Of a stretch of 64,000 bases of DNA, positions 31,918-64,000 are shown in pieces; positions within the stretch are counted from its first letter, which is position 1; the number at the start of each line of letters is the position of its first letter. The translations under genes were made by a program, and so were the position numbers. The notes under the pieces were generated by a model. That model saw only the letters and a program-made list of their open reading frames with translations, was not told where the DNA came from and searched no databases. This DNA comes from Lingula anatina (taxonomy: Eukaryota; Animalia; Brachiopoda): assembly GCA_051362555.1 (NCBI GenBank), contig CM120640.1, positions 24,786,225 through 24,850,224 of the forward strand, given 5' to 3'.

Positions 31918-35319
<3,402 letters not shown>

Positions 35320-38663: not shown

Positions 38664-40725
38664 CTACGCAAAAAGAGGACCCATTTTATAGAAGGGCCTT
38701 TCTGGTTAATTTTGCTATCTGCCCACAACCCCCCCATTCTGCCATGTCACTTGCCCTAGCATTTTGTTCGGTAGGCCTAGTGAAATTCAGCTAAAAATTA
38801 CATCGAGCAGTGAATATTTAATAAATCTTGAAAAAAATCTTTCAGAATCAAGTTGCTGGTTAACTTGTTATTAGTGTGATTTTATTAGAGGCGTGGCATC
38901 CTTCTGGCGAGAAACCTGCATGTTCGATGGAATAGCCTACTTTTTATAATAATGAATGAAATAGTTCAGGAAGTAGGACCAATGAAATTAGTGTGACTTG
39001 GAGCGCATTCAGAACAGATGATCCGCGGACTAACTGATCCGCCGACTAACATGGCCGACTCCACTTAAAAGCAGCGTCGTTTAATCCCCAGATGGTCACC
39101 CCGCCTCCACACAATAGACCAAACAGTTTTCCTCGAAATGTGTTATCTATATTGCATATGTGGTGAAAAAATTTGAAAAAATTGGACCGATCAAACTTAT
39201 TTTCAGCCTTGATCTGTATTTTATGAATATTCAAGAGTTCTGTAAGTTTGAAGACAATAGGTCAAACAGTTTTCCACTTATCATGTTATCTCTGAAAGTG
39301 CATGGCGACGCCGACGACAGACGCAGGTGATGGCTATATGTACAGAGATTGTCACCCGATGTGTATGAAAAGAAAACAGTTCCATTAACTATGTTAGGCC
39401 TATGTTACACTCAAATCCCCTTAAACGTAGATTTTGACCCACGCCACAAACCCAAAAGGCTGTTACCCCCCCCCCCCCCCCCCCGATTCTTCGCGGAATC
39501 ACATCGAAGGCGTCGCTTACATAGATCCTGCAGACAGAAGTAACAAAATGTACACAGGTTCAATGTTACGACGGATCTCTTAGAAGTCAGAAACAGAAGC
39601 CTTGACGACATGCTTACGTAGCTTATTCAATATGCACATGCTGTTGTACAGGATGCATGTATGTAATAAAATATACATCTTGGTTAATATACATCTTTCT
39701 CTTATTATTATTATTGGTTCAACAATTTGTACAAACATGTAGGTATGTGACTGAGAAGGCCCTGTAATTATATTTCTTTTTTTTTTCCTTTTTTTGCGCC
39801 AACCTGCACAAGTTCTCCAATAGCTAGTCTTTTAAAAACATATAGGGGTCTACTAGTATAGGCCTACCTTTGTGTCAGCGCATCTCGATCATATTCTAAG
39901 TGCGGTGGGAGATTATAATTTTGGGCCAATGTCACCATAAATTTTCGGAGCAAAGAATAAAGTTTAATATAAAGAAAATGCAGAACAAAGGACGTCTATG
40001 TAAACAAGAAGGGTCTACCAGAACATTGGTAGGGGCCGACGACTTCATCCTACAGGGTATCTGGGATAAAAAAAAAAAAAAAAAAAAAAAAGGGAGCTTA
40101 AATTTGAGATTAATAGGACACCTGAAACAAGTAGGTTTTTTTTAAATATTGAATCAACTCTGTTAACATTTATGCCTACATTGTCACGAACCACTGACAA
40201 GCAGTACAAATCAGTCCCCCCCCCCCACACACACACACGTACACCTTTTTTCCAAGGTAGTAACAGTACTTTAGAATAAGATGTCTAAGACAAATAAGTT
40301 GACGTGAATATCTGACTGTTTGCATTTATATAAAGCATCCTAAATTTGCATTTCATGTAGCGTTTTAATGATGCCAGAACTACCGTTGTGTGAGAACAAG
40401 ACAAGGAAATTTGAAAATTCTTTTGAAAAATTAATGCACATTGTAATATAGGTCTTTATCAACTATCAGCAAATCTACAGACACTCTCTGATATAGCTTT
40501 GTTAAATTAAATGAAACAATAATTATCAACGATCAGTTTAATCGGCGAGTTTTGACACTGGACTCAGCATTTCTATGACCTTGACCTCAAAAGCTTTGGT
40601 GTTTAATTCCGCATTCAAGTCTCGTTTCTGATTATTATGAAAACAATGCAATGGTGTCCATAAAGAGGGAGGAGAGGAGCGGTAGTGGATAGTGTCAACT
40701 TAAGCCGTAGACGAAGCGATATAAG

Positions 40726-43429: not shown

Positions 43430-44110
43430 CATGTAGCCGTCACCTGTGTCTGTCGTCGCCGTCGTTGCTGTGCACTTTCACCAATAACACATTGTTTTTC
43501 CTTTTGGCTTGAAACTTACAGAACTGATGAATATCTATTATACGCAGGTCGAGTTCGAAAATCTGCATGATTGGGCCAATTTTATGGAAGTTATGCTGTT
43601 TTTTCACTTTTTTCAGCACATATGCAACACTGATAATACGATAAGTGAAAATCCATTTTACCTTTTGGTTTGAAACTTACAGAACTGATTAATATTCATA
43701 ATACGCAGGTCAAGTTCGAAAATCAGCATGATCGGGCCATTTTAAGGGAAGTTATGCTGTTTTTTTCACTTTTTTCAGCATATATGCAACCCTGATAACA
43801 CGATAAGTGAAAAACTGCTTTACTTTTTGGATTGAAACTTACAGATCTGATGAATATTCATAATATGCAGGTCAAGTTCGAACATCAGCATGATCGGGCG
43901 ACTTTTATAGAAGTTATGCTGTTTTTTCAATTTTTATTTCAACATAAATGAAACACTGATAACACAATATAAGAAAAACAGATAGGCCAATTGTCATTAT
44001 ACTCACAGGAGTAGTCAATTTAACTAAAACGCAGGTTAAGTTCGAAAATCAGCATAATCAGGCCATTTTTTTAGAAGTTATGCTTTTTTTTCAGATTTCC
44101 TCAGATTCAA
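43430..44110 (+). repeat. ~3.5 tandem copies of a ~180-bp unit after a (GTC)n-like microsatellite, probably the core array of a Helentron-associated element
   Basis: Recurring ttgaaacttacagaactgat...gcaggtcaagttcgaaaatcagcatgatcgggcc...gaagttatgctgtttttt. Confidence 0.7.
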
Positions 44111-45959
44111 TTCATATGCATGTTAACAGTCTCATTATTGAACTAATAAGATACGTAAAAGTACTTGTTTGACATTTCCTGCATCTTTACAACATTGTTA
44201 GTTGATTATGTAAAAATGATGGTAAACTTGTTATCGGGTATTGTGTAATGAAGTGTCAAAAATGGAAATAAACTCATATCATTGCAGTTTGTCAGATTCA
44301 ATCATCCACTATGTTCAGAATCTCAGAATGGAGGAAATTGGACATTTAACACTGTTATGTTGCATCAAAATTTGAAGATACCCCTATTTTGAGCACTGCT
44401 CCCATGATAACCATGTCTACATGTCAAAATGTCACCTTTGCCTTGGCATTTGTCACTGATTAGCTCCTCCACCAGTGTAAAAGGTGTATTAGTGTGATCA
44501 TATGTGTGGAATTTCATGTCAGATGGACATATAAAGATCTAAAAATTCGTCAAAATATTGAAAAAAGATACAGCTTTGCACAGCAGTCGGAAATCGGTAC
44601 GATTCAGTTGTTAGTTACGAACTACTTCCTGGTTTTCATAAGGTCCTTCAAGACCTCTATAACATTGTTATAATTGCAGCCCATACCATAAAACACCCCA
44701 AAATACTTAGATATGGACATATCAGATTATATTAATGCCAAATTTCCACATGACAACGATTTATAGACTCCCGGGAATTATTTTCCCTTAACGCTCTTTG
44801 TCGCGCTGGCGGTCAATGCAGCATTTATTTCAAAACAAGTTGGCCGCAAATTAAGCACGATTTTGCAACTTCAGGTTCCGTGTCACTTTTTCATATCATG
44901 CATCTTTTATTTCTACAAGTATTCTCTGCCCAAAAATGCGTAAAAAAAGAGAGTTATCTTACCAGGTTGTTTAGAAAACTTCTTTTTCCTCCGACTACAC
45001 GTCTTCTCTCCCGTTCACCTCCAGGTTAAAATGACCACTCAGCTTCGCTTCTAACACCACTACACGTCACTTCCGGGCACAATCAGTCTTCTCCGATTCC
45101 CTTTAACACACGTAGGAACTGCAAGTCTTCAAAATGGTTGAATAAGTTTAAATCAGTGAAAAGGGATCCAAAAAATATTTTTTCATTTTAATACTTATCA
45201 TTCATCAGCTTTTGCATTTTCCATCTATTTTATCTCAGCTGCTAATGATAAGTGTTTAAATCATCAATTAATTCTCGTAAAATATAAATAGTTTAAGTCA
45301 TGAATAATCCTTAGATATACACCCAATGCATATTTTCAAAGATGCCAGTGTGTTATTGTGATGTTATACAAGTTGTTATTATTTTAACAAAAGTTAAAAG
45401 AAAATGATAAAAAAACACCAGACTAAGATATGGGTCCCGTGGCAATCTTCCTTCTACAATTTAAGTGTGAATTACTAGTAACTATGAAAACAGGAACTCA
45501 CAAACAATATTACAATCACCATTTACCGAATCTGTATTAATTATTACTTTCAACCTTAAAACATTTAAGTCAACCATGAAACAATCTATAAGAGAATTGA
45601 ATTGTGTTAATGGTATGGCAACTCCTGAGAACATCTTCAGTTATAATATAATGGCAGTGTTCCAAAACCACGATACATATTAAATACAGGCTTGCTTAAA
45701 TCTTAAACGGAAAGGAAGTATTATCAAGTGTTGCACCTGCTCAGCAAAGCTGCAAATTTTATTTTGCAGCATCACAATTTCACTAGCACATTTAAGATTT
45801 AATAATTGTTAGTATATTTGTAACATATTTAATATTCGTCATTTGCCTCTAATCTTCGCTAAACATTATTAAAATATTACCACACATATTTATGATAAAT
45901 GTATGCATATTTGTAATAACTAAATTTTATCATTTGCTACGGGAATGGGGGGGGGGTCT

Positions 45960-46570
45960 TAAAAATAAAAATTTTGGGCCGCAATTCCCACAGCAAATAT
46001 GAAGGAGTGCCAGTAGATAAGGCCGGTGCCATGAAACTGAGGGTCCGTGTGACAGACAGTCCGTCCTCCATATAGTTAGGGTTAGTTTGACCTCAGTAGG
46101 TCAAAATCTAGGGCGAGGCTCACTTGTACAAATGAATGGGAAGCGGACTCTCTGTCATGGGGGACTTTCTGGTACATGTCACCGGTGATGGCACAGAAAT
46201 GGGAAAATTCTTGGTTTTGTCTAGTTTTGCTTGCATTATACATTTATATAAAATCTGATTCTCAAAATAAATGCAATCGGCAAGTATTATGCTACAGGGA
46301 TGGGAGTGAGGTGTTCTTAAGAATAAAAAAATTGGGCCTTAATTCCCTCAGCAAATATAAAATAGTGCCAGTAGATAAGGACAATAATGGCACAAGGATG
46401 GAAAAAATCTTGGTTTTGTCTAGTTTTGCTTGCTATATGCATTTATATAAAAAATTGGGCCTCAATTCCCACAGAAAAAAAAAAAAAAAAAAAAAAATAG
46501 TGCCAGTAGATAAGGATAACAATGGCACAGGAATGGGAAAAAAATAGTTTTTTTTCTCGTTTTACTTGTG
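45960..46570 (+). repeat. Degenerate tandem repeat (3 copies) interrupted by a MITE at ~46023-46185
   Basis: Recurring ttgggcc..aattccc.cag...agtgccagtagataagg...atggcaca. The insert has ~40-bp imperfect TIRs ccggtgccatg...gtgacagacagtccg / cggactctctgtcat...catgtcaccgg. Confidence 0.6.
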
Positions 46571-46723
46571 TTATAGTCAAGAACATATACATTTATACAC
46601 AATGTGCCCCTTCGTTAACATTAAGAGGTGTTGGGTTCTTAAATCTACAGTGGGATTTATTTAAGTAAGATAGTTACTTCTCTAATTTGACTCAGGAAAG
46701 TCTAGGTAACGGCTCGAGTTATT

Positions 46724-46883
46724 CCTGGGACTCCGTAACTTAAAAGCATCGCGTATTGCGAACGGCGATATCACAGAGGCTACAGTGTATTACATGGGGC
46801 GAGCATGGGCAAGTACTCGTAATGGTATCGAGACGCTTGCGCTCGGTCGCAATGCGCGCTGCTTTCGAGTTACGGGGCCCGGG
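46724..46883. mobile_element. MITE-like element with ~45-bp imperfect terminal inverted repeats
   Basis: cctgggactccgtaacttaaaagcatcgcgtattgcga matches the reverse complement of tcgcaatgcgcgctgctttcgagttacggggcccggg. Confidence 0.65.
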
Positions 46884-49800
46884 AGAGCAAAGTAACGCAG
46901 CACCACAGCTTTGTATCCAAAAACCAAAATTCAACTCATTACCTGGACATCGGCTAGTTTTATGGAAGAAATTGGAGTGACAGAAATAGTGACGAGATTG
47001 TAAAAGTTTAAGTGAGAGGCGAAAGAGGATAATTTCTACTAATGATTAAACGAGCATACATGCGAGTCCATTTAAATTTATTTGCAAGTCTCGCTTTTTT
47101 TAGCGATCTGTACACGACCACTTTTTTTTACAAAAAAAAAAAAAAAAAGGAAAAAAGAAAATTATAGAATATTTTTTATTCAACTATTATGTATAATTTT
47201 GAATATTTACAGTTGATTTAAAAAGGACTAATAATCAGTAATGAACTACGTAAACGCAATGAATTAATACATAGCAGTATTATCAAAAGTTCTAAGATTT
47301 TCCATCGTCTTCATCTAGCGTCGGAACGCACACAGTCCGATAATGCAGGTCTTGTGGTCGGAAACTGGTATCAGATGCTCTCGGGCCGTGGGGAAAAACC
47401 CGTCTAAACCCTTCGTGGGGAATGCCGGGAAAGTGCCCACGCCCGGATAATTCTTCAAGAACCGTTTTAGACAGCATTGTGTGACGGAATAACCTTTGTC
47501 TTGACTAACTATTCTCTATATATACTATACACGAGGTGAAGCATAAAAACTTATTAAAGTAATTCTTACAGAAAAAGGCACTGAAGCCAATAAAAAACTA
47601 ACAAGAGACATAACAATTAAACAAAATCATTTTGACTTTATCTTGGAGAATTAAAACCATAAATAAAGTTAATCATTTTACAACTGCAAGCATCTTTCAA
47701 AACTTGATTATAGTTCTCTTTATGATAAAATGCAAACAGATTCAAGTAATATGATTATAACTCGGGAATATCAATGATTTCAACTAAACATTGATATATA
47801 ATTCGACTTAAAATACCAGGTTTCTAAAATGTAACTTTGCACTGAAATCGAAACTACCTGCATGATACAAGTACAGAATAAAGCAAGCTTGCTTCAAAAT
47901 ATTTCGGATCTCACATTACACTGTATGACCGCCCATGTAAATTTCAATCTGAATTTTTTTGATCCGGAGAAAAGGTGCATATGTGATGAAGTGGATGTAT
48001 TTGTCAACTATAACACTTGAGAAAATCTGAATATTAGTAATGTGATCTCTATCTTGAGAGATGACAGCATCTCTCAAGAAGAGCAGACTGTACAAAAATA
48101 TAATGAAATATTTTCTCACACGTAAAATATTTCATTACAGATTTTGCACAATCTATCAATGTAAAATCTCTTCATGTAAAAGCGTTTACATGAAGTCAGA
48201 TTTTACAAAGATGTGAGGGTTTGTTAGTAAGGTTAGTGTGCAGGTTAAGACCTTTTCAAATGCCATACTGACAAACAACTCCACATCATCAAAAGCACAA
48301 ATTTGAAAAATGACCATCTCAGATTGAAACAAAACACAGACGACCACAAGTGGTGGGAATGTTTTTGTGAGCAAAAAACTATCTGCATTCAGAATGTGGA
48401 TAAAGCAACTCTATATTCAAATTTATTAATATAATAATTATAGCAACTGTAGAGGTAGACTTTTCCTACAGAAGCACACATCTTATTCAATTGATCTTGT
48501 ATGGAATGAAGAATCATCTTGAACCTCAGTTTTCTCTTCTGTTATTGAAATAAAATGGTTCACTGCATAAGGCATAAAATACAAATGAAATTTGATGCAA
48601 TTTCACCTCGACATGTTTGTGACCCATGAACCCCAAATGTTCTCAGCATCCAAAAGACTGATACATTATTAGACCGTATTCCCACTACATTCAGTACTGT
48701 ATATTGCCTTCATTACCATTCCACATTCTCTATATTTGTTTGCAGAACAAGCCGTGTCCTTCAACACCAAAACTCGTGGGATGTCCGAGCATCCATGAAA
48801 GTGTCTACAGGGCTCCTTGCTAACGCTGTACAGTGTTTAACATCTTGGACATTTGGTCTTGGGTCGACGGTATCTGACATCACGCAGGCGTAATTATTGG
48901 AAAACTCCCAATTCGTAGCCTACAAATGAAATCCAACTTTTACTCAAAAGTATGAAAAGCTATATCGAAAGCTTGCAGTAACTGCAACAAAGAAAGTATA
49001 TCACTGGTATTTACACACCGTTAACATTAATGAAAAGCTTGGTTCTTAAATGATCAGAGCGTTATTTCCAAATGTACAGTGAAATATGCTTCCTTTATTG
49101 AAATATATATATATTAACTTTTTAGAGTAAGTAGACAGCAGTCTTCAAAAAATAAATTATTTCAAACATTTGACAAAAAAGTAAGAAAAGATGTTGCTAT
49201 ATTGAATATTGTAATGTTAGCCTACATGTTAAATTGTTGACTGTCTGTGCTACTTTTAATTCTACTGTTTGTTTACATAGGATATAGTTTTTGATCACTG
49301 TCAATAATAAGAAACGCCATAATACACCAATAATAATACTTTAAAAATTCAGAACCACTTTTCTTAAGTTGTTGATCCCCAATAACTTACAAAGTTATCT
49401 GTATAAAGATCCCTCAATCCTGAAGAAGTGTTTCATCTGGAGGTTTGGTAGTTGCAATCTTCATTTTTAGAATCCACCACTTTTGGTAGCCTGCAAATTT
49501 AAATTATTACTTCAAAATGTAATAAAAGTCAACCATTTGTATATGAAATGTGTTTTTAAAGTTTCAGCAGTTTGATGGGAAATAAATATCAAAAGCACTT
49601 TTGTCACAAACTTGGAAAAAACATTCAAGCGAAATATTTTGACATGCCACTGGCGACCTTCAGACTTAATGTCACAATGGGGTATTGCACAAATTAGTTT
49701 TAACGAAGGAAAAGGAACACTAACAGCATTCAAACGACTCTACTCAAAGACGAGTTTAAGTAAAGCCTGAACAATCTAGATCCAGCGGGAGGAGTGTACT

Positions 49801-50139
49801 AGTATTCCATCAAGTGTTTAATTTGTGAAGGATTTATATGGGAGAGACAAAGAGAAAGTTGAACGTTAGAGTTAAAGAACACGGGAAGGAATAAGAAAGG
49901 GTACCCGAAGAGGGAAAAATGCACTACAGCCCAAGGTAGCCTTCTGCTACAACGAGCCATCATAAAAAAACATTGATTGGGAGAGTGCCAAGATTCTACA
50001 AAAAGAAAGTGACTGGAGAACAAGAGGCGTAAAGGGAGGCATATAAACCAGGAAAATGCCTAACAATCTGAACAATATAGAGAGATGGAAATAAATACTC
50101 ACTTCTACGGTGGCCTTTTATTACCACAACCACAGCACT

Positions 50140-50540
50140 GGAGGTGGGGGTGGTAGCTGCTAGCATACAATTTCTGGACCAGTGACAACGTCCCGGAGTC
50201 ACATTGGTGGTGGGTGTTGGGGGCGGTAGCTCCAAGTAATCTGGACCAGTAACCACGCCCTGGAGTCACATTGGTGGTGGTGGGTGGTGGGGGCGGTAGC
50301 TCCAAGTAATCTGGACCACTGACCACGCCTCAGAGTCACATTGTTGGTGGTGGGTGGTGGGGGCGGTAGCTCCAAGTAATCTGGACCAGTGACCACGCCC
50401 CGGAGTCACATTGGTGGCGGTGGGTGGTGGGGGCGGTAGCTCCAAGTAATCTGGACCAGTGACCACGCCTCGGAGTCACATTGGTGGTGGTGGGTGGTGG
50501 GGGCGGTAGCTCCAAGTAATCTGGACCATTGACAACGTCC
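50140..50540. repeat. 70-bp GC-rich tandem repeat, ~5.5 copies
   Basis: ctggacca recurs at 50174, 50241, 50311, 50381, 50451 and 50521. Confidence 0.95.
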
Positions 50541-51994
50541 TGCAGAATATTGAGACTGTTGAGGATCTGAAAGTTGACGAATGGCATGTCAAAATATTTT
50601 GTATGAATGATAAGGTTTTTCCACATCTGTGACAAATTAAAAGAGCTTTTTACCTGTGAAAAATGAGCACTGAATTTGCTAGAGTAAATTGTAAATAGAA
50701 AACAAATGCCTGCACCGAGTGACAGGTGCCACACATTCTTAAAACAATTGTCTAAGACCTTGCACAAAATGCTCAGTTTGTTGGAGTTGCACTGATAAAA
50801 GGTTTGTATTATCTATACAATGAATGACAATCTAGTTCATTTACCCTTATCCTGTCCCATAACTTACCTTGAATGCTCTCTAATCACAACTATTGAAGGG
50901 CTCTTGAAACACTATATGATATATGGCTTTCTCCATTTTAGCCTTGTTAACCTTGTTAAAATGGACCGTCATCAGGACAGGCGCTCGCCAATGCTATCTG
51001 CCTCAACTACAAAATAAAAAAAATTATAAGTCAAAAGTTTCCCTCTTTACTTCTCCCACCCAAATCCAATCTACTAACCATAAATATCTTAATCCTAGGA
51101 GTGGGTCATGGGTAAAAGACATTGCCTTCTGAATGTGAGCTGTCAAATTAATGTGGCTAACGGTTTTTAGTTTTTCAAGGTATGAAAAATCACTTAAGTG
51201 TTTTGTTTTCCCCAAAAAACATGAGTGATATGTACCTTTTAAGGCTTGATAGGTTTCCATCTCTGTGAAACGCCATATGCTTCTGATGCTCCCCCATGCA
51301 GCCCCCTAACATACAGACCATGGCAGGACTCAACCATGCACCAAGGATTGAATGTGACCCTCTTCTTGCACCTCTTTCAAAAAAGCGGGACTTTATCAGG
51401 AATTGCCCTAATTGAGTTCTGTAAATAGAAAGGAAAATTTGATTAGTTTTCAAAAATTGTATATCAAAAGCAGTCTGCAGCCAGAAAAATTGTTGGAATT
51501 GGTGGATTTCCAGAATGTGTCAATTTGGTGACATGGCTGTTAGATTTTTTCTATAAGTTTGAAAAAGAGCTTTTGATTTATTTTAAATGTAACTGTTACA
51601 TCACGATTCGAGAAAAATGTCAAGGTCTTGTTAATACAAATATTAATGCAATCCAGTCTAGTCCTATTGAACTTTGTATTCGAACCAGTGAATCAAGATT
51701 CAGACATCTATATCTAGTTTTTAGGAAAGAAGGTGGACTGAATGGCCAGTAGGGTGAAAAGTTTATGGCACAGACTGCTGCTGAAAAATTAATTTTAGTG
51801 TATTGTTCTCGCCAGTAACACGGGTTACCTTGCAGGTTTTTCCGCCTCAGTGAAACACCATATGCTTCAGACGCTTCTCCAATGCAGCCTCCTCAACAGA
51901 CCGTGGCAGGACTCACTGGCACCAAGGATTGAGGGATGTATCGGAAGTGTGCACGTGGCCCTCTTCTCCTTGCAGTTGCCATGAAACGTTGGAC

Positions 51995-52575
51995 AGGACT
52001 CGCTGGACGCTTCCTAGTGCAGCCACCTCGTAGACAGACCATGGCAGGACTCGCTGGACGCTTCCCCAGTGCAGCCACCTCGTAGACGGACCATGGCAGG
52101 ACTTGCTGGACGCTTCCCCAGTGCAGCCACCTCGTAGAGACCATGGCAGGACTCTCTGGACGCTTCCCCAGTGCAGCCACCTCGCAGATAGACCATGGCA
52201 GGACTCGCTGGACGCTTCCCCAGTGCAGCCACCTCGCAGATAGACCATGGCACGACTCGCCGGACGCTTCCTTAATGCAGCCACATCGTAGACAGGCCAT
52301 GACAGGACTCGCTGGACGCTTCCCCAGTGCAGCCACCTCGTAGACGGACCATGGCAGGACTCGCTGGACGCTTCCCCAGTGCAGCCACCTCGTAGACGGA
52401 CCATGGCAGGACTCGCTGGACGCTTCCCAAGTGCAGCCACCTCGTACACGGACCATGGCAGGACTCGCTGGACGCTTCCCAAGTGCAGCCACCTCGCAGA
52501 TAGACCATGGCAGGACTCGCTGGACGCTTCCCCAGTGCCGCCACCTTGTAGACAGACCATGGTAGGACTCGCTGG
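51995..52575. repeat. 52-bp GC-rich tandem repeat, 11 copies (degenerate relatives at ~51870 and ~51290)
   Basis: Unit gactcgctggacgcttccccagtgcagccacctcgtagacggaccatggcag recurs every 50-52 nt. Confidence 0.95.
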
Positions 52576-52636
52576 CTCCAAGGGATGGTCGAAGTAGCTT
52601 AAGTGTAGATGTGGGGTGTCTCCTTGCAGTTGTGTC

Positions 52637-53440
52637 CTGTAAACAGAAATAAAAACGAGATTAGATTTCTTTCATTTCTCAAACCCCCCTTCCAAAAAGA
52701 AAAAAGATTACATACCTTAAGGAGTGTAGTCGAAGTCCCACAGGTGGCGCCCATCATCTTCTATGTCCTGTAAACAGAAATAAAAACGAGATTAGATTTC
52801 TTTCATTTCTCAAACTCCCCTTCCAAAAAGAAAAAAAAAAGATTACATACCTTAAGGAGTGTAGTCGAAATCCCACAGGTGGCGCCCATCATCTTCTATG
52901 TCCTGTAAACAAAAATAAAAACGAGATTAGATTTCTTTCATTTCTCAAACTCCCCTTCCAAAAAGAAAAAAGATTACATACCTTAAGGAGTGTAGTCGAA
53001 GTCCCACAGGTGGCGCCCATCTTCTTCTATGTCCTGTAAACAGAAATAAAAACGAGATTAGATTTCTTTTATTTCTCAAACTTCCCTTCCAAAAAGAAAA
53101 AAAGATTACATACCTTAAGGAGTGTAGTCGAAGTCCCACAGGTGGCGCCCATCATCTTCTATGTCCTGTAAACAAAAATAAAAACGAGATTAGATTTCTT
53201 TCATTTCTCAAACTCCCCTTCCAAAAAGAAAAAAGATTACATACCTTAAGGAGTGTAGTCGAAGTCCCACAGGTGGCGCCCATCATCTTCTATGTCCTGT
53301 AAACAAAAAATAAAAACGAGATTAGATTTCTTTCATTTCTCAAACCCCCCCTTCCAAAAAGAAAAAAGATTACATACCTTAAGGAGTGTAGTCGGAGTCC
53401 CACAGGTGGCGCCCACCAGTTTGCAGTCTGCTTCCTGGAC
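52637..53440 (-). repeat. 131-132 bp exon+intron satellite, ~6 units (left copy)
   Basis: Reverse complement of the array at 62522-64000. Confidence 0.95.
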
Positions 53441-53795
53441 CTGTAATAAAAAGAAACCTGGAAAGCATGGGAATATATTCGTAGTGTCATTGCATATATG
53501 CAATGACACTACGACTCCAGCCCACGACAGCAAAAAGGTGAAGTATCCTGCGAAGATGACCGAGCGACGATTCCTCGTGGGGAGAAGCGAAGATTTTAGC
53601 TGGCCAGCTAAGAGAAACGCCGAATCCACCGTCTAGACGTCTGCGTGTGCAAGGAACAATATGTCGAAGAGCGATGCGTTGACGTAGGATGAGTAGAAGA
53701 TTCGGAGAAATGGGAGTCGACTCCCATGTCCTTTGTGCTTGATACAGGGCGCAGCACATGGCATCCTTCCTGTTGCTCTAGATCTGTCCGCTGTT

Positions 53796-53885
53796 GAGTG
53801 AACGCACTTTTAAAATTTTGCGCTTTTATACCTTTGTTGACGTATAGTCACATGATGGCGTTCTTGTTGTCACCAATGGTCAACT
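53796..53885 (-). promoter_or_regulatory. TATA+Inr Pol II promoter of the left element copy
   Basis: TATAAAA at 53830-53824 with Inr-like TTCACTC ~28-30 nt downstream. CRE-like TGACGTA, TCATGTGA E-box and CCAAT immediately upstream. Confidence 0.65.
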
Positions 53886-55936
53886 TGTTCAAAGGGGATG
53901 GCCTTTGATAGTGATACGCAAATTTGGTAATAATATCTTATCAACATATATATATATATTTTTATATTTTATATTTTGATTATTCTGCCTATCAATTTTT
54001 TTATAATAAGAATAATAAGTTCAAAGCAATGTCTGTGAAATGTGCAGGCAAACTTGATGAAAATTTCTGAGCAACATACCTTCTCCCTAAAATTTTTATA
54101 GGTACGATGTCCGTTAAGCTGGTAGCTGTGAACTTCTCGCAGGCTATTTTAGTGTGCGTGTATTTGAAGACTGATCCAAAATGTGGATAATGTAATTTGG
54201 CGTAGGGTGACTGCATTTTTGAGGCAGCCTGAGGGAGTATGGTTGTTCTGATTGTAGTGAATTGTAGAGAGACAAATGAAAGTACACTAAACTTAGCATG
54301 TGCAGTCACCCAAGTACTCTGAGACACATTTTGTAATCAGCTGACTTGTTATTCTGAAAAATGAAAAAACAAATTATATTGATTTACAAAACTGGAAGAT
54401 AGAAGCAGTGGATCATATTACTTATGCCAGGCAGAAGAAACGACTGAATGTACATTTTTATATTCAAAACGTCTACTGATTTAGGTAATAATTAATAGCC
54501 TGGAAGATCGCAGCAGTGGATCATATTACTAATGCAAGGCAGAAGAAACGAGTGAATGTATATGTCTATATTCAAAATGTCTACTGATTTAGGTAATAAT
54601 TAACAAGAGACGTCTCCCTTCATGGCGTCGGGTTATCAGTACTCCCACACCAGTAACATGAGTTATGAGTTGAACAGAAACAGAAAAAAGATTTTTTATA
54701 AAGATAATACAAGTATATGTGTAGGCCCATTTATCTTTTTTTATATTACTAAACGTAAGAATTGTTTGTCCAAGTGAAACTTTACTTAAATCAGCCTACT
54801 TCTATGATCTGACGTTTTAACGTCTCCGAAAATAACTAGAACTTTTTGAATAACGCAATAATGCGGCCACCTTCGAGGTGTCGCCCGGTTTTTAAAAATT
54901 GGAAAAAGAAACTTTTCGGGGCGTCTTTTGTCGCGGGTCATTATTTTCAGGTGTTTGATGTTTTTTTTTGTAATATTTTAGGCATTAATAGAATCTTTAA
55001 TTCAGTTACATCCACGATTAGCTAGACGATATGGTGACAGGGAAAAGTCAAATTTTTTAAACGGCAAAAACTGCATTCTCTTAGAAAGTAATTAGCAAAC
55101 ATTCATTACTAGGCACTGTGAAAAATTCAACCGAAGTTGAAGACAAAATTTGTCAAAAATAAACGTGCATGTCGTAATACCTATTTAAAGCAGTCTAATT
55201 TTTGTTAGTATTAAAAACGTGTAAATATTATCCATATGGGATATTTTTAAAGCCTTTGATATTTAAAATATTTAAACTTCCCATACTTGAGGCATGCATG
55301 AGTCGGAAAATGTTTGCATAATTACACAAAAAAAAACTAGAATTATCTCTTTATGTGACCACAGTTTACTCATATGCCTTACATCATTCCCTTAAACCCT
55401 TTCCCAATATCGATTTCAGATATTTTTGACACATTTTGTCCTCATCTGAATCACGTGAACGTTATCAAGTGTCATGGACGTACATTACAAAAACATTTAG
55501 GTCTTGGAACGTGATTTGATGACCTTTTTTAAACGCATATACAATTATGAATTTATAATTAAGTTATTTAATATCAAATTATAAGTTCTGACCGAGTTTT
55601 AAATTTTATTTTAGGAGGGGTAAAAAAAAAACACCCCCTCTAATATACATGTAGTATGTTATAGATATGGTACTGTTAGGCTTATGAAAAGTCCTACTTT
55701 AACTACAGAAGTGTACATGTGATAAAGTATAAAGAAAAATTTTAAAAAATTAAAATTAAAATTCTGGTGAATTTGCTCACTCCCATCTCACATGGCAAAT
55801 TCAATTACTAATCCACCTGAGCTTGGTTATAATGTAATGTACTAACAATATGCAGCCTGTTCAGAGTTATGGCTAACTACTAGTAAAATAAGATAAAGAT
55901 AAAGTAAATGCTGAATGTAACGGATGAGTATTAAAT

Positions 55937-56100
55937 CAGGCGCGTAGCCAGGGGGGGTTCGGGGTTTTTAAAGAACTGCCACTTTTGCTGGAAGGTCCAC
56001 TGTGGGTAAAATTTGATCTAGGTACATGAAGTTTTTATGGAAAAAGGTCCACTTTTTAAGAAAAAGAACCCCCCTTTTGAAATTGCTGGTTACGGGCCTG
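55937..56100. mobile_element. hAT-like MITE upstream of the first visible MOV10 exon
   Basis: TIRs caggcgcgtagccag / ctggttacgggcctg, each flanked by taaat. Confidence 0.6.
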
Positions 56101-56136
56101 TAAATGCACAGACATCCCTTTTTATTCTCTCCACAG

Positions 56137-58046
56137 GTTCAAAAACTGAGGCAACTGCTGTTCAAGAAAAACTTTCGGGACATAAAGGTGGGCAGTGTGG
56201 AGGAATTTCAGGGTCAGGAGAGACGGGTCATCATGGTGTCCACCGTGAGGAGTAACCCCGATTACCTGGCTCTGGACGCAGAGTTCAAGCTGGGCTTTTT
56301 AAAGAACCCAAAGGTCAGTCATTTGTACACTTATGCATGTGGACACACAAACTGGGGTAGAGTTAACACTGCTCAATTAAGCCAAATGCTAAAACTGATT
56401 TCAATTGGTTAAACAAAATAGGGTTATTTTGACTTATTTTAGTCAAATTTAAACCATTTTGGAGAAAAAAGTGATGAAAAAGTAGTAATTTGGCTTTAGA
56501 AAAAATTGCTAGTGCCACCTCAGCATATGGTAATAACTTGATTTTTTTCAGTGGGGGGGAAATCGTGAATTTTACAGATGCGGTATTTTTTAGGCCATTA
56601 ATTTTTAAAATTTTAATACTCCTACCCAATTCCTATTGGATGGTCACAACAAAATAAAAAAGTAAGCTACTCTATAGTTCTAATCTATGCAGTAAGTGCA
56701 CCACAAATACTATATACAAATGTGATTTTTGTGCTTATAAAGGTATACATTTGAAAGTTTGATAAATTTTGCCCATTGAAAAGATAGTGTCATTACCATG
56801 ATTGTGCTGTGGCATGTGTATATGCGTGAACACATAATTCATAAGACTTTGTACATGTGGATGTGCACACACATATTTTGAAATGTAAGGTTATTTAAAC
56901 AGCTATAGTCCATACTATTTTCATCACCATTTCTTTCCACTATGGCACTGCAGAGATTATGCCATGTGATGCGGAATTCACAGAAGAGATATGAACAGTT
57001 AGTCTCAGACTATACTGTCTTCAGTGTTCACCCGCACATACAGTTACATGTGGGATTAATTTTTTTTCAGAGGTTTAATGTGTCGATCACAAGAGCAAAG
57101 GCCCTATTGATTGTTGTAGGGAATCCGTTTCTTCTTTCGCAAGATGAACATTGGAACAGGTGAAGTGAATTATTTTAATTTATTTGATCAGTAAGCAAAA
57201 AAAGTTCAATCAAATTATAAGACTTTTTCAAACCAAACACAAATCAGCCATGTTAGGTTCAAAATTTTTTTTCCTTTATTTAATCTTTATTTAATCTCAT
57301 TGTTTCTAAGAACTCTTGTTCAGACAGACAGACAAACCAACCAAAAAAGAAATATTAAGGATTTAATAAAGTTCATAAATTAAATTTTTAATGTTTGTTC
57401 AGACAGACTGACAAAAAAAAAAAAAAGAAAAAAAAACAAAGAGGATAGAAAGATTAAAAAGAGAAAGCTATCATGTTGTAGTTCAGAAAGACTGTTAAAT
57501 GAAAAAAAAATAGAAAAAAAAGGAAAGTTAAAAAACATGTAAATTAAACTCCAAACTGACAGACAAAATAGTGTCTACTAGGCAATCCTTTCTTTTATTG
57601 TGAATGAAAGTCCATACAGATAGACAAAAGAAATTAGGCAATTCTTTCTTTATTTTCAACTTCTCTTTGGTGTAGTTTCCTTAAGTACTGCCTCGAGAAT
57701 AAAGCGTACACAGGATGTGATTACGATGACCCTACTGATCAGCTCGACGATGTTGTAGAGAGGTTTGCTGCAGTGAATATTAAGCAGTCAGGTACGAGCA
57801 GGATTTATTGCAATCAATTTCTCTGTTGAATATTTTATTTTCTCAGATTATTGGCTATAAATAATCTAAATCATTAGGACTGAAAAGTCAGAATTTCAAA
57901 TAAATTGCATGCACATGTACTATCTACTAGCTGTCATCTTGCATTTTCATTACTTTAAGTCCATTTTCAAGAGCAACTATTTTCTTCTTGTCTGTCGTGT
58001 TATTCAGACGTACCACAAGTAATGTGTCCAAGATATATTGATTTTA

Positions 58047-58081
<35 letters not shown>

Positions 58082-58187
58082 TGCACCATTTAAACTTTTT
58101 TGGGAATATATTATTTTTCAAGATGTAACCATGGATGTCAGCCAGGTTCAGTTGCAAGAAGACCCCGAGTGGAGAGGAGAGGCCTAA
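56137..58187 (+). CDS. MOV10: MOV10 (UPF1-like SF1 RNA helicase), last four coding exons only
   Basis: Exons 56137-56313, 57071-57159, 57676-57791 and 58123-58187 in phase: IKVGSVEEFQGQERRVIMVSTVRS...[27 protein letters not shown]...EDPEWRGEA*, matching MOV10 motifs V/VI and its EPEWR-like tail. AATAAA at 59924. No upstream helicase exons found in the window. Confidence 0.9.
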
Positions 58188-61100
58188 TTTTAACTCTGTA
58201 TTCTCAACTGTATTCTCAACTCAGATTCTTCTGTGATCAAGAGGAAATGCAAGATCTTTTACTAGGGGAGCCTGAATTTGAAAATCAAAATATTATGACG
58301 AATAAGACATGGAGGCTAGAGAAACTGATATAATATAATATTGTTGACCACGATATAAAGCTGCCTCATGTATATTAAACTATGACATCTACCTGTAAAC
58401 GCAGACTTATCAAACCTTGCAAGTTCATCTTTTTTTCTGGAGAATGGTACATTCAAGTGACATGACGTTTATTATGAAACAATTGAGGATATTACTTACT
58501 TAAGCCATATTTTATGGTGCTTGAAACTGTGGTCATTTTTTGTCACTTGATTTTAGAGAGATTTTGATAGATATCATGTAGTCAAATTAGGTACAATTCT
58601 GTTAAAGAACTTGTGAATCACTAATTGTATGAAAATAATCAAAATTGGGGTTTGAATAATGCTTCAATAATTGTCTTAATCATTTTGACTTGAGCCTATT
58701 TTATCTGTGAATATCAAATTTTAATATTTTTAATAACATTTTATCAGTATATTTCAGATATGCTTTATGAAAAAGTTTTAAATTGACAGGAGTATTTTTA
58801 TAATAAGTCAGTTTTAGAAATCAAATTGATTCTATACTAGTGAAAATGTAAAATTCCAGAGTATATTTTTAACCAATGTTTTCTGTAATGTATCATACAG
58901 TGTGACTGTGTTTGTTCTCACCCTATGGGGAGGCAGAGCCTTCAAACTAACTATTCCTTGCACTTGCTTTACTAAATGTTTGAAGTTGGTTTGTAGTCTA
59001 AAATCTGAGCCTATAAAGACTTAGCTGGCTAAGTTGCACTTTACAGTTGTAAGAATCTTACAGATAGCCTAGGCCAGAAATAACTGATAAGTTGCAATGA
59101 CTCACTGTAAAAAAGGTTGGTAGATTGCATGAATCTATTTGTGGTCTAAATTTTGTCTTTTATGCATATGTTTAATGAGAATAGCATCCAAAGGTTAAGG
59201 TTAGGCTTTCACTACACCAATCCCCTATTCCCCTTTTTTCACTTACAAAATGGCAAAAATAAAAATAGGTGCAAGAAAAGTTCTGATTTAATCAAAACTA
59301 GAGTATTGTTCGCTCATTAACCAAGTTATCAATTTTGCCTCATTTTTTCCAGTCTTTTTACTTTCTTTTCACTTTCCTTTGATTTACATTTTGATTGTCT
59401 TGGCAAGTCTTTTACTTGCAGTGGTGTCAGTAGCCCATTTATGTATATTCTACTCATCAACTGTGGACCAATCATTCTTAAAAAATTGAAGTTGTAAGAC
59501 AATATCGCAAAGTTGACTTTGTATAGTTGGCTATCCAGATTTAGCAGTCTAAGCTTAATTTTTTTGTGAAACGGTTCCCTTTTTTCAATGAGCCAGTATA
59601 CAGTACCTAATCAGTATTGAATTTACATATTTTATCTTTATCAGCACAATAAGAATCTTGCCATCTACTTTGAATTTTCATTGTTATTAACATTTTAGAA
59701 TTGTTATGGAATTAAGCTAATTATGTTATCAGTAAGAACAAGATGTTATTATAATGATACATTTATGTACTGTGTAGATGCCAGTGCACTACTAAATTAT
59801 GAGGAGAAATTTTTAATATTTTTTGGGATGGAGGAAACACAATTAATGAGGTTTTGGGGATTATCTTAATTTTGTGCAAAATTGGGCAACAGACAATGGT
59901 TATTTATGTACTGAAAATATATCAATAAAGCAAAAAAGAATGATAGTGCTAAGCTTTGTGGTGGAACCAAAACAGATTTTGTGGGGTTGCGAAATATCGT
60001 GTGTATCACGTCTATAGACCTAGCAGTATAAAAAGCCTTATAATTCTTGCAAGTGGTTTCTTCTTAGTAATTTGGACATTTAAAGTAAATTGAGGACAAC
60101 ACCGCTTCACTAAGAAATGACGTAAAGTCACACACTACAACGAAGATGGACTGTGAATTATACAAAAGTAATGTCTGATCGGAGAGTGGGGTGCATTCGA
60201 AACACATGACCTTTTGTCACTCTTACGTAGTTTTTTTTTTAATTACACATACACCATAATAATAACTTTAGCTAGAAGACACATTTTGTACGCCTAGTTC
60301 TAAGGACATAAGCCTACGGATGTATCCAATATATATTAGATGGGGTTGGTTTTTTTTACCCCTCCTAAAATAAATTTCAAACTTCGGTCAGAACTTATAA
60401 TTTGATATTAAATAACTTAATTATAAATTTATAATTGTATATATATGCATTTAAAAAAGTCATCAAATCACTTTCCAAGACCTAAATATTTTCGTAATGT
60501 ACGCCTTATGACACTAGATAACGTTCACGTGATTCAGATGAAGACAAAATGTGTCAAAAATATCTGAAATCGATATTGGGAAAGGGTTTAAGGGAATGAT
60601 GTAAGGCACATGAGTAAACTGTGGTCACATAAAGAGATAATTCTAGTTTTTTATGTAATTATGCAAACATTTTCCGACTCATGCATGCCTCAAAGTATGG
60701 GGAGTTTAAATATTTTAAATATCGAAGGCTTTAAAAATATCCTATGTGGATAATATTTACACGTTTTTAATACTAACAAAAATTAGACTGCTTTAAATAG
60801 GTATTACGACATGCACTTTTATTTTTGACACATTTTGTCTTCAACTTCGGTTGAATTTTTCACAGTGCCTGGTAATGAATGTTTGCTAATTACTTTCTAA
60901 GAGAATGCGGTTTTTGCCGTTTAAAAAATTTGACTTTTCCCTGTCACCATTTCGTCTAGCTAATCGTGGATGTAACTGAATTAAAGATTCTATCAATGGC
61001 TAAAATTTTACAAAAAAAAAAAAAAAAACATCAAACAACTGAAAATAATGACCCGCGACAAAAGACGCCCCGAAAAGTTTCTTTTTTCAATTTTTAAAAA

Positions 61101-62099
61101 CCGGGCGACACCTCGAAGGTGGCCGCATTATTGCGTTATTCAAAAAATTCTAGTTATTTTCGGAGACGTTAAAACGTCAGATTTAGTTGCTAGGCTGATG
61201 TAAGTAAAGTTTCACTTGGACAAACAATTATTACGTTTAGTAATATAAAAAAAGATAAATGGGCCTACACATATACTTGCATTATCTTTATAAAAAATCT
61301 TTTTCTGTTTCTGTTCAACTCATAACTCATGTTACTGGTGTGGGAGTACTGATAACCCGACGCCATGAAGGGAGACGTCAGTTGTTAATTATTACCTAAA
61401 TCAGTAGACGTTTTGAATATAGACATATACATTCACTCGTTTCTTCTGCCTTGCATTAGTAATATGATCCACTGCTGCTATCTTCCAGGCTATTAATTAT
61501 TACCTAAATCAGTAGACGTTTTGAATATAAAAATATACATTCATTCGTTTCTTCTGCCTGGCATAAGTTATATGATCCACTGCTTCTATCTTCCAGTTTT
61601 GTAAATCAATGTAATTTGTTTTTTCATTTTTCAGAATAACAAGTCAGCTGATTACAAAATGTGTTTCAGAGTACTTGGGTGACTGAACATGCTAAGTCCA
61701 GTGTACTTCCAATTGTTTCTCTACAATTCACTACAATCAGAACAACCATACTCCCTCAGGCTGCCTCCAAAATGCAGTCACCTACGCCAAATTACATTAT
61801 CCACATTTTGGATCAGTCTTCAAATACACGCACACTAAAGTAGCCTGCGAGAAGTTCACAGCTACCAGCTTAACGGACATCGTACCTATAAAAATTTTAG
61901 GGAGAAGGTATGTTGCTCAGAAATTTTCATCAAATTTGCCTGCACATTTCACAGACATTGCTTAGAACTTATTACTATTATTATAAACAAACTGACAGGC
62001 AGAATAATCAAAATATAAAATATAAAAGAAAATGTATATGTTGATAAGATATTATTACCAACTTTGCGCATCACTATCAAAGGCCATCCCCTTTGAACA

Positions 62100-62190
62100 A
62101 GTTGACCATTGGTGACAACAAGAACGCCATCATGTGACTATACGTCAACAAAGGTATAAAAGCGCAAAATTTTAAAAGTGCGTTCACTCA
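62100..62190 (+). promoter_or_regulatory. TATA+Inr Pol II promoter of the right element copy
   Basis: ATTGG (62108), TCATGTGA (62130), TACGTCA (62141), TATAAAA (62155-62161) and TTCACTC (62183-62189). Confidence 0.65.
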
Positions 62191-62521
62191 ACAGCGGACA
62201 GATCTAGAGCAACAGGAAGGATGTCATGTGCTGCGCCCTGTATCAAGCACAAAGGACATGGGAGTCGACTCCCATTTCTCCGAATCTTCTACTCATCCTA
62301 CGTCAACGCATCGCTCTTCGACATATTGTTCCTTGCACACGCAGACGTCTAGACGGTGGATTCGGCGTTTCTCTTAGCTGGCCAGCTAAAATCTTCGCTT
62401 CTCCCCACGAGGAATCGTCGCTCGGTCATCTTCGCAGGATACTTCACCTTTTTGCTGTCGTGGGCTGGAGTCGTAGTGTCATTGCATATTCCCATGCTTT
62501 CCAGGTTTCTTTTTATTACAG

Positions 62522-64000
62522 GTCCAGGAAGCAGACTGCAAACTGGTGGGCGCCACCTGTGGGACTCCGACTACACTCCTTAAGGTATGTAATCTTTTTT
62601 CTTTTTGGAAGGGGGGTTTGAGAAATGAAAGAAATCTAATCTCGTTTTTATTTCTGTTTACAGGACATAGAAGATGATGGGCGCCACCTGTGGGACTTCG
62701 ACTACACTCCTTAAGGTATGTAATCTTTTTTTCTTTTTGGAAGGGGAGTTTGAGAAATGAAAGAAATCTAATCTCGTTTTTATTTCTGTTTACAGGACAT
62801 AGAAGATGATGGGCGCCACCTGTGGGACTTCGACTACACTCCTTAAGGTATGTAATCTTTTTTCTTTTTGGAAGGGGAGTTTGAGAAATGAAAGAAATCT
62901 AATCTCGTTTTTATTTCTGTTTACAGGACATAGAAGATGATATGCGCCACCTGTGGGACTTCGACTACACTCCTTAAGGTATGTAATCTTTTTTCTTTTT
63001 GGAAGGGGGGTTTGAGAAATGAAAGAAATCTAATCTCGTTTTTATTTCTGTTTACAGGACATAGAAGAAGATGGGCGCCACCTGTGGGACTTCGACTACA
63101 CTCCTTAAGGTATGTAATCTTTTTTCTTTTTGGAAGGGGAGTTTGAGAAATGAAAGAAATCTAATCTCGTTTTTATTTTTGTTTACAGGACATAGAAGAT
63201 GATGGGCGCCACCTGTGGGACTTCGACTACACTCCTTAAGGTATGTAATCTTTTTTCTTTTTGGAAGGGGGGTTTGAGAAATGAAAGAAATCTAATCTCG
63301 TTTTTATTTCTGTTTACAGGACATAGAAGAAGATGGGCGCCACCTGTGGGACTTCGACTACACTCCTTAAGGTATGTAATCTTTTTTCTTTTTGGAAGGG
63401 GGGTTTGAGAAATGAAAGAAATCTAATCTCGTTTTTATTTCTGTTTACAGGACATAGAAGATGATGGGCGCCACCTGTGGGACTTCGACTACACTCCTTA
63501 AGGTATGTAATCTTTTTTTCTTTTTGGAAGGGGAGTTTGAGAAATGAAAGAAATCTAATCTCGTTTTTATTTCTGTTTACAGGACATAGAAGATGATGGG
63601 CGCCACCTGTGGGACTTCGACTACACTCCTTAAGGTATGTAATCTTTTTTCTTTTTGGAAGGGGAGTTTGAGAAATGAAAGAAATCTAATCTCGTTTTTA
63701 TTTTTGTTTACAGGACATAGAAGATGATGGGCGCCACCTGTGGGACTTCGACTACACTCCTTAAGGTATGTAATCTTTTTTTCTTTTTGGAAGGGAAGTT
63801 TGAGAAATGAAAGAAATCTAATCTCGTTTTTATTTCTGTTTACAGGACATAGAAGATGATGGGCGCCACCTGTGGGACTTCGACTACACTCCTTAAGGTA
63901 TGTAATCTTTTTTTCTTTTTGGAAGGGGAGTTTGAGAAATGAAAGAAATCTAATCTCGTTTTTATTTCTGTTTACAGGACATAGAAGATGATATGCGCCA
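62522..64000 (+). repeat. 131-132 bp exon+intron satellite, at least 11 units (right copy)
   Basis: ...tttatttctgtttacag|GACATAG...CCTTAAG|gtatgt... recurs with exon starts at 62664, 62796, 62927, 63058, 63189, 63320, 63451, 63583, 63714, 63846 and 63978. Confidence 0.97.

Follow-up and report, generated by a model that had tools for sequence, protein, structure and literature searches.

Firre is a multi-exon non-coding RNA with local repeats as exons; in the parts of the source drawn on here, one repeat (RRD) makes up many of the exons, seven of 13 in human and 11 of 23 in mouse, other repeats lie in the introns, and RRD undergoes lineage-specific homogenisation and has been shown to mediate nuclear retention (PMC4820808). 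In the host gene of SNORD115 and SNORD116, SNHG14, each intron carries a box C/D snoRNA and the exons accumulate over the introns, according to the relevant portion of that account (PMC11608373). LL2R of the chicken is a strand-specific tandem-repeat RNA that is dense in splice sites and poorly spliced, and the section of the preprint considered here proposes that it recruits splicing factors (bioRxiv 10.64898/2026.03.19.712899).

We have analysed a locus of the brachiopod Lingula anatina whose layout, by analogy, appears to resemble such repeat-built lncRNAs most. The window is a stretch of 64,000 nucleotides (GenBank assembly GCA_051362555.1, contig CM120640.1, forward-strand positions 24,786,225 to 24,850,224), to which all coordinates refer, and it holds two tandem arrays whose unit is one short exon plus one complete intron. 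A first-pass annotation, made from the letters of the window, had known of no described element with this design, a claim that the three systems above do not support. Like Firre, as far as the compared part of its description goes, the Lingula RNA is transcribed, spliced and multi-exon, with local repeats as exons. Firre repeats are discontinuous over a large locus and are spliced in, whereas the Lingula unit is a contiguous 131-nt exon plus intron of 97% identity that is mostly unspliced and occurs at multiple loci; nuclear retention, shown for RRD, is only predicted for the Lingula RNA. SNHG14, in the portion of its account used here, shares the tandem non-coding exons and similar introns within one transcript, but its introns contain snoRNAs and are efficiently spliced, while those of Lingula are 79 nt long, box-less and mostly retained. 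The likeness to LL2R, as given in that section of the preprint, lies in a strand-specific, splice-site-rich and poorly spliced tandem-repeat transcript; LL2R has a threefold donor excess and few poly(A) signals, whereas in Lingula every donor has an acceptor of its own within a normally spliced, poly(A)-selected RNA. Unequal exchange also multiplies whole exon-plus-intron units in repeat-protein genes, which keep their reading frame on module amplification, whereas the Lingula array keeps none. Gene capture by Helitrons and Pack-MULEs leaves a gene piece with introns adjoining a dispersed repeat, but element termini were not found at the Lingula locus. Searches of the main texts of the open-access literature turned up nothing on this Lingula family or on short non-coding exon-plus-intron tandems.

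The units of both arrays (Table 1) measure 131-135 nt and follow one another head-to-tail, each with a 52-nt exon and a GT..AG intron of 79-83 nt. Parsing returned 17 introns, in agreement with the annotated exon-plus-intron unit and with its five full exon copies in the left arm; of the "at least 11" exons annotated on the right, ten are full, but the 11th had been counted although it is cut at the window edge, the right-array introns spanning 62585-63977 (+). TRF reported a period of 131 for both arrays, with matches of 97% and 96%. The right array is led by segment A, a 63-nt leader (62522-62584) that has 41 nt in common with the repeated exon by alignment, and the left array together with its own leading segment A covers 53440-52637 (-). 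A 33-nt intron word occurs 17 times in the window, against 0.00 expected from 100 shuffles. Introner elements are near-identical introns scattered through unrelated exons; within the window, all 17 intron copies fall in the two arrays.

Table 1. Coordinates of the two copies of the gene and of the gene piece between them
Feature	Position	Strand	Evidence
Exon F, last exon; putative 3' end	50100..50566	-	Joint 50868/50566, TRF, signal list
Exon E	50868..51006	-	Joints
Exon D, older duplicate of exon C tail	51236..51418	-	Joints 51829/51418 and 51236/51006, alignment
Exon C with intron-less tandem	51829..52636	-	TRF, units; donor in 29 and 21 reads
Left array, six introns (79-83 nt) and five exons of 52 nt	52637..53377	-	Parsed units
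Exon 1, left copy	53378..53799	-	Comparison of copies
TATA box, left copy	53824..53830	-	Sequence
Duplicated MOV10 3' piece, four exons with introns, ~aa 960-1112	56119..58187	+	tblastn of P0123
Upstream part of right copy, inverted duplicate of 55650-53831	60329..62154	+	blastn, TRF
TATA box, right copy	62155..62161	+	Sequence; sense coverage rise behind TATA
Exon 1, right copy, ending in segment A; putative start	62186..62584	+	Continuous sense depth ~7-21, alignment
Right array, 11 introns (79-80 nt) and ten full 52-nt exons	62585..64000	+	Parsed units, spliced and unspliced joints

Donor GTATGT, the CTAAT element and the acceptor CAG are identical in 17 of 17 introns, as the first-pass annotation had stated. 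Among the 15 aligned exon-plus-intron units there are eight substitution columns and four indel columns (eight variable columns of 131). Every indel column lies in an intronic T run and the one G-run length variant is found in the left copy's A intron, so the annotated restriction of length variation to intronic T/G runs also stands; the array exon has no homopolymer run for slippage, the only such runs of the unit being intronic. The chance that none of the eight variable columns falls in the 16 splice-critical columns is 0.34. Invariance of the splice signals is thus expected by chance, which suggests a young array, and it is no evidence of selection. The common array exon has stops in all three frames, again as annotated, and the GAAGAAG variant is open in one frame.

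The array had been labelled a satellite. Rather than standing free as a satellite, it occupies the middle of a gene whose RNA is spliced, poly(A)-selected and probably non-coding; the left array's six introns lie inside that spliced gene, and the right array is cut at the window edge. RNA evidence was drawn from five of the nine listed raw RNA runs (X1, X3, X4, X7 and X8; 6-26% of each run's reads), of which X1 and X3 are stranded. The downstream part of the left copy was covered by a mapping target at 50470-52052, to which 496 (X1), 408 (X3), 48 (X7) and 53 (X8) reads were assigned. Exon C was joined to exon D (51829/51418) in 29 and 21 reads of X1 and X3, with an intron depth of 0-2, and exon E to exon F (50868/50566) in 31 and 21 reads, with an intron depth of 0-4; the joint from D to E (51236/51006) was found in 3 and 12 reads with an intron depth of 4-16, and this intron is partly retained. 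All three introns are canonical and two of them are almost completely removed. X7 and X8 had none of the three joints and little coverage. The array thus belongs to a conventional poly(A)-selected RNA with several exons, whose length would be ~2.3-2.8 kb in the case of the left copy. Exon C contains about 11 intron-less units of 50-52 nt at 51994-52575 (-), and exon F a 70-nt tandem at 50173-50537 and an AATAAA at 50122.

Upstream, the first-pass annotation had the array in sense orientation just downstream of a TATA promoter. Sense RNA does arise from just behind the TATA box of the right copy, coverage climbing from bin 62175-62211 in both X1 and X3, ~30 nt behind the box, with an initiator-like TCACT at 62184-62188; the box itself, however, is ~360 nt upstream of segment A. 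No read joint was found at the acceptor before A and coverage is continuous across it, and A is therefore taken as the final part of exon 1. In the left copy, exon 1 contains a perfect 36-nt palindrome (53479-53514) that is missing from the right copy, the length difference being 23 nt. The palindrome region has a 66-nt fold with z -6.5, and the only Rfam match obtained fell on it (E 0.71; 24.5 bits, where the cut-off is 100) and was put down to chance.

Array reads were mapped to 61620-62727, a target that holds one unit, so that all units collapse there. It received 232 (X1), 156 (X3), 47 (X7) and 4 (X4) reads, most of which are 90-99% alike and represent several haplotypes, i.e. they derive largely from other copies or individuals and not provably from the two window loci. 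The array RNA is sense, with a depth of 142 against 4 antisense in X1 and 93 against 2 in X3. The exon-exon junction that had been proposed as a search word was found in three of four runs, as a joint going back 52 nt in 7 (X1), 9 (X3) and 10 (X7) reads and in none of X4, which had only 4 reads. Its three-letter ambiguity includes the exact GT..AG splice 62715/62664, a variant array exon was likewise joined at the same acceptor in X7, and the joined word is absent from the window sequence, in line with its claimed absence from the genomic unit. Unspliced unit-to-unit joints, going back 131-133 nt, were found in 32 (X1), 27 (X3) and 7 (X7) reads, and the mid-intron depth was 146, 95 and 26, respectively. 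The rough, length-corrected spliced share is 0.10 (X1), 0.19 (X3) and 0.48 (X7), where detection of spliced reads is perhaps incomplete and the near-half estimate for X7 rests on 10 joint reads.

In most array reads the intron is still present, and spliced joints are a minority; retention prevails in the two deepest runs. The main RNA is thus not the chain of 52-nt exons with many junctions that had been envisaged. Collapsed array depth is 3-9 times the single-copy exon depth, which fits several retained units per transcript, and as this depth matches 6-11 units per gene no separate satellite needs to be invoked. Retained array introns and spliced downstream introns probably occur together on one molecule, a linkage beyond the reach of short reads. 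The 61620-62727 mapping listed no joint from segment A to the first array exon, and an array-skipping joint was not present among 13/16 loose read ends. Loose ends at 62666 and 62658 included four X3 reads in which an exon D-like end is joined to the array exon, by another module order or back-splicing, and four X1 reads in which the array exon stands behind a different upstream sequence.

Alignments suggest that the gene was assembled from old duplications. The head of exon C, its tail and exon D are related to one another. Aligned with the tail of exon C, the array exon scores 37 (26.6±3.1 in shuffles, 0 of 500 as good), and the end of the array intron scores 40 against the end of the C-D intron (20.0±3.6, 1 of 1000 shuffles). 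The tandem within exon C has the same 52-nt period as the array yet an unrelated sequence, with a strong-context ATG in most units; a common origin of the two periods was rejected (array exon against exon C unit, 22 vs 24 under the null), as was the idea that array exons pair with the units of exon C (-59.9 vs -57.8±7.0, 180 of 500 shuffles as good). Three of the ten unit types are present in both arrays. From the promoter on (62079-62663 vs 53297-53900) the two copies differ at 2 of 584 positions, against 64 of 1750 (3.7%) upstream (P=2e-6), a near-identity attributable to gene conversion or constraint. Unequal exchange, with gene conversion between the copies, probably made the array.

The account that we favour, and consider somewhat better than even, is a recent tandem amplification of an old exon-plus-intron module inside a multi-copy, repeat-built and likely non-coding RNA gene, with introns that are mostly retained and an RNA that is likely nuclear. 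Unequal exchange would expand the array and gene conversion would homogenise the copies. A purine-rich stretch pairing with the polypyrimidine tract may account for the weak splicing of the array, and repeated U1/U2 landing sites on the retained introns may hold the RNA in the nucleus, the product being a probable nuclear RNA studded with repeated splice sites. In folding predictions the pyrimidine tract of the array intron pairs with a purine-rich stretch before the branch point that is missing from the spliced, homologous C-D intron, and the unpaired share of the tract is 0.16-0.40 in array introns vs 0.57-0.84 in the three downstream introns. The case for tract occlusion as the cause of poor splicing is weak, because the D-E intron is partly retained although its tract is predicted to be open, and two Smad1 acceptors are predicted to be fairly closed (0.23-0.38, one of them cut one base off).

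By analogy, a Firre-like scaffold role would be the most likely function of this RNA if it has any, with near-neutral expansion about equally likely; any action that it has is likely to be that of a nuclear RNA carrying repeats, not that of a splicing counter. On the favoured account, amplification of an exon-plus-intron module supplies a lncRNA with repeats and introns in a single step. The locus also offers a natural splicing experiment: 17 near-identical introns with consensus donor, branch point and acceptor mostly stay in the RNA, whereas an older, homologous acceptor of this gene is almost fully used. A dependence of retention on unit number would amount to a new kind of dial; failing that, the locus cautions that flawless splice signals in a young array are no guarantee of a design that is spliced and selected.

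The arrays lie inside a 3-kb inverted duplication (52633-55650 vs 63323-60329, 95.4% over 3034 nt by blastn) with the two copies arranged head-to-head, and a 108-bp doublet was found by TRF at 61385-61596 in the upstream part of the right copy. The MOV10 piece between them is 90-97% identical to the full 1112-aa Lingula MOV10 protein, whose full-length gene is located on another scaffold. An intact MOV10 as host gene around the left copy was ruled out, aa 1-956 having no match in the window. Minus-strand RNA at 61620-61841, upstream of the right promoter and directed toward the MOV10 piece, reaches a depth of 12.7 in X1 and 5 in X3; part of these reads run on into unrelated sequence, which makes their source locus ambiguous.

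Such a setting raises the possibility, which we regard as serious though unlikely, that the RNA is the transcript of a non-autonomous mobile element, either Helitron-like or of Pack-type, which took up the 3' piece of MOV10 and carries the array as a neutral passenger. At least three related loci on other scaffolds, an arm similarity that begins sharply at a small hairpin, several internal tandems and the intron-bearing gene piece alongside would all be accommodated, and this reading is compatible with the RNA findings. Against it, no transposase or Rep/helicase domain was found in 98 frames of 44000-62600, the 60 nt that flank the left copy at its 5' end and the 1.1 kb beyond its 3' end have no 9-nt direct repeat in common, and canonical Helitron ends were not seen, the far end of the right copy lying beyond the window. 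A different and rather improbable proposal is that copy-number-variable, self-occluded introns form a landing strip of splice sites, in which unit number would set nuclear hold or spliceosome load, regulated splicing would release the RNA, and MOV10 might be damped. In its boldest form, both copies would transcribe the trapped MOV10 piece from two sides and so damp an anti-transposon helicase.

The frame of exon C matches two 'uncharacterized' Lingula proteins and HMMER added a third, each on a different scaffold; with the two window copies the family would comprise at least five loci. The HMMER search, over 1.84 billion proteins, gave 12 matches, two in Lingula at 75-76% identity and ten outside Lingula at 21-30%. 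The ten were judged compositional, and the two of them that were inspected are unrelated repeat ORFs. Exact motif scans of metagenome contigs and viral contigs gave 0 matches. In P0242 (LOC106153014), the NCBI model appears to carry translation across a relative of the array intron at residues ~44-70 (weak tblastn, E 0.9), and such read-through would fit intron retention at another locus.

It is very unlikely, in our estimation, that the gene codes for protein, whether as a Cys/Gly/Ser/Trp-rich repeat protein from exon C, with the array as a 5' leader whose upstream frames and retained introns throttle translation, or otherwise. A frame of 216 codons does run from an exon C ATG and would reach 262 with the last array exon spliced to it, and the three NCBI relatives in Lingula are modelled as short proteins with one frame in common over ~35 residues. 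But these models translate a single DNA module in different frames, 18% of shuffled 52-nt units are equally open in all frames, and the exon C tandem contains 50-51-nt units as well as two stops. The reads often carry frameshifting indels: a 7-nt insertion in exon E is carried by 14 of 26 and 17 of 26 reads, and exon 1 shows 1-nt and 7-nt deletions. Pfam comparison of the 98 frames of 44000-62600 (89 in one set, the other nine within a separate set of 13 frames) gave no match above the cut-off in the transcription unit, only sub-threshold DotD/SH3 noise. Because of these indels, the repeat periods of 52 and 70, the 15-26 ATGs ahead of exon C and the lack of a Pfam match, the RNA gene is likely non-coding, in keeping with the stops in all three frames of the common exon that the first-pass annotation had pointed out.

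We hold it to be highly improbable that the array is efficiently spliced and tunable, either loading many exon junctions or releasing identical intron RNAs, as the first-pass annotation had supposed. The signals are of consensus type, the donor matching seven of nine positions of the consensus and being as good as those of the spliced introns; joints occur in three of four runs, near half of units in X7; and, as five of the nine listed runs were used, a fully spliced stage is possible. Retention is nonetheless dominant in the two deepest runs, and the invariance of the signals is no more than chance predicts. Nor did the intron give structural support to small RNAs: it folds into two weak hairpins (-13.3 kcal/mol, z -0.47), and Rfam on 45000-64000 had no match in it. 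A mirtron was ruled out, as there is no single end-to-end pre-miRNA hairpin, and a tandem snoRNA host likewise, since the intron has no C box, D box or H/ACA signature and the introns are not efficiently excised. It is scarcely credible that splicing of the array introns never takes place and that the joined reads stem from another genomic copy of the 52-nt exon, one without introns: the joined form is known from RNA reads, and exon C proves that intron-less 52-nt tandems occur in the gene, but the joint lies exactly at GT..AG, the joined word is not in the window, the unit of exon C has no relationship to the array exon, and a variant exon uses the same acceptor.

Other features of the window were also recorded. 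A divergent Smad1/5 paralogue lies at 31921-35310 (-), and one Smad exon within the window matches a Lingula anatina protein at 100% identity. A TGF-beta family ligand gene is found at 11820-12494 (-) and a choline transporter-like gene at 21840-22106 (-). A 162-bp repeat at 43494-44093 runs to 3.7 copies (82%), and a dispersed relative lies at 39178-39349 in opposite orientation.
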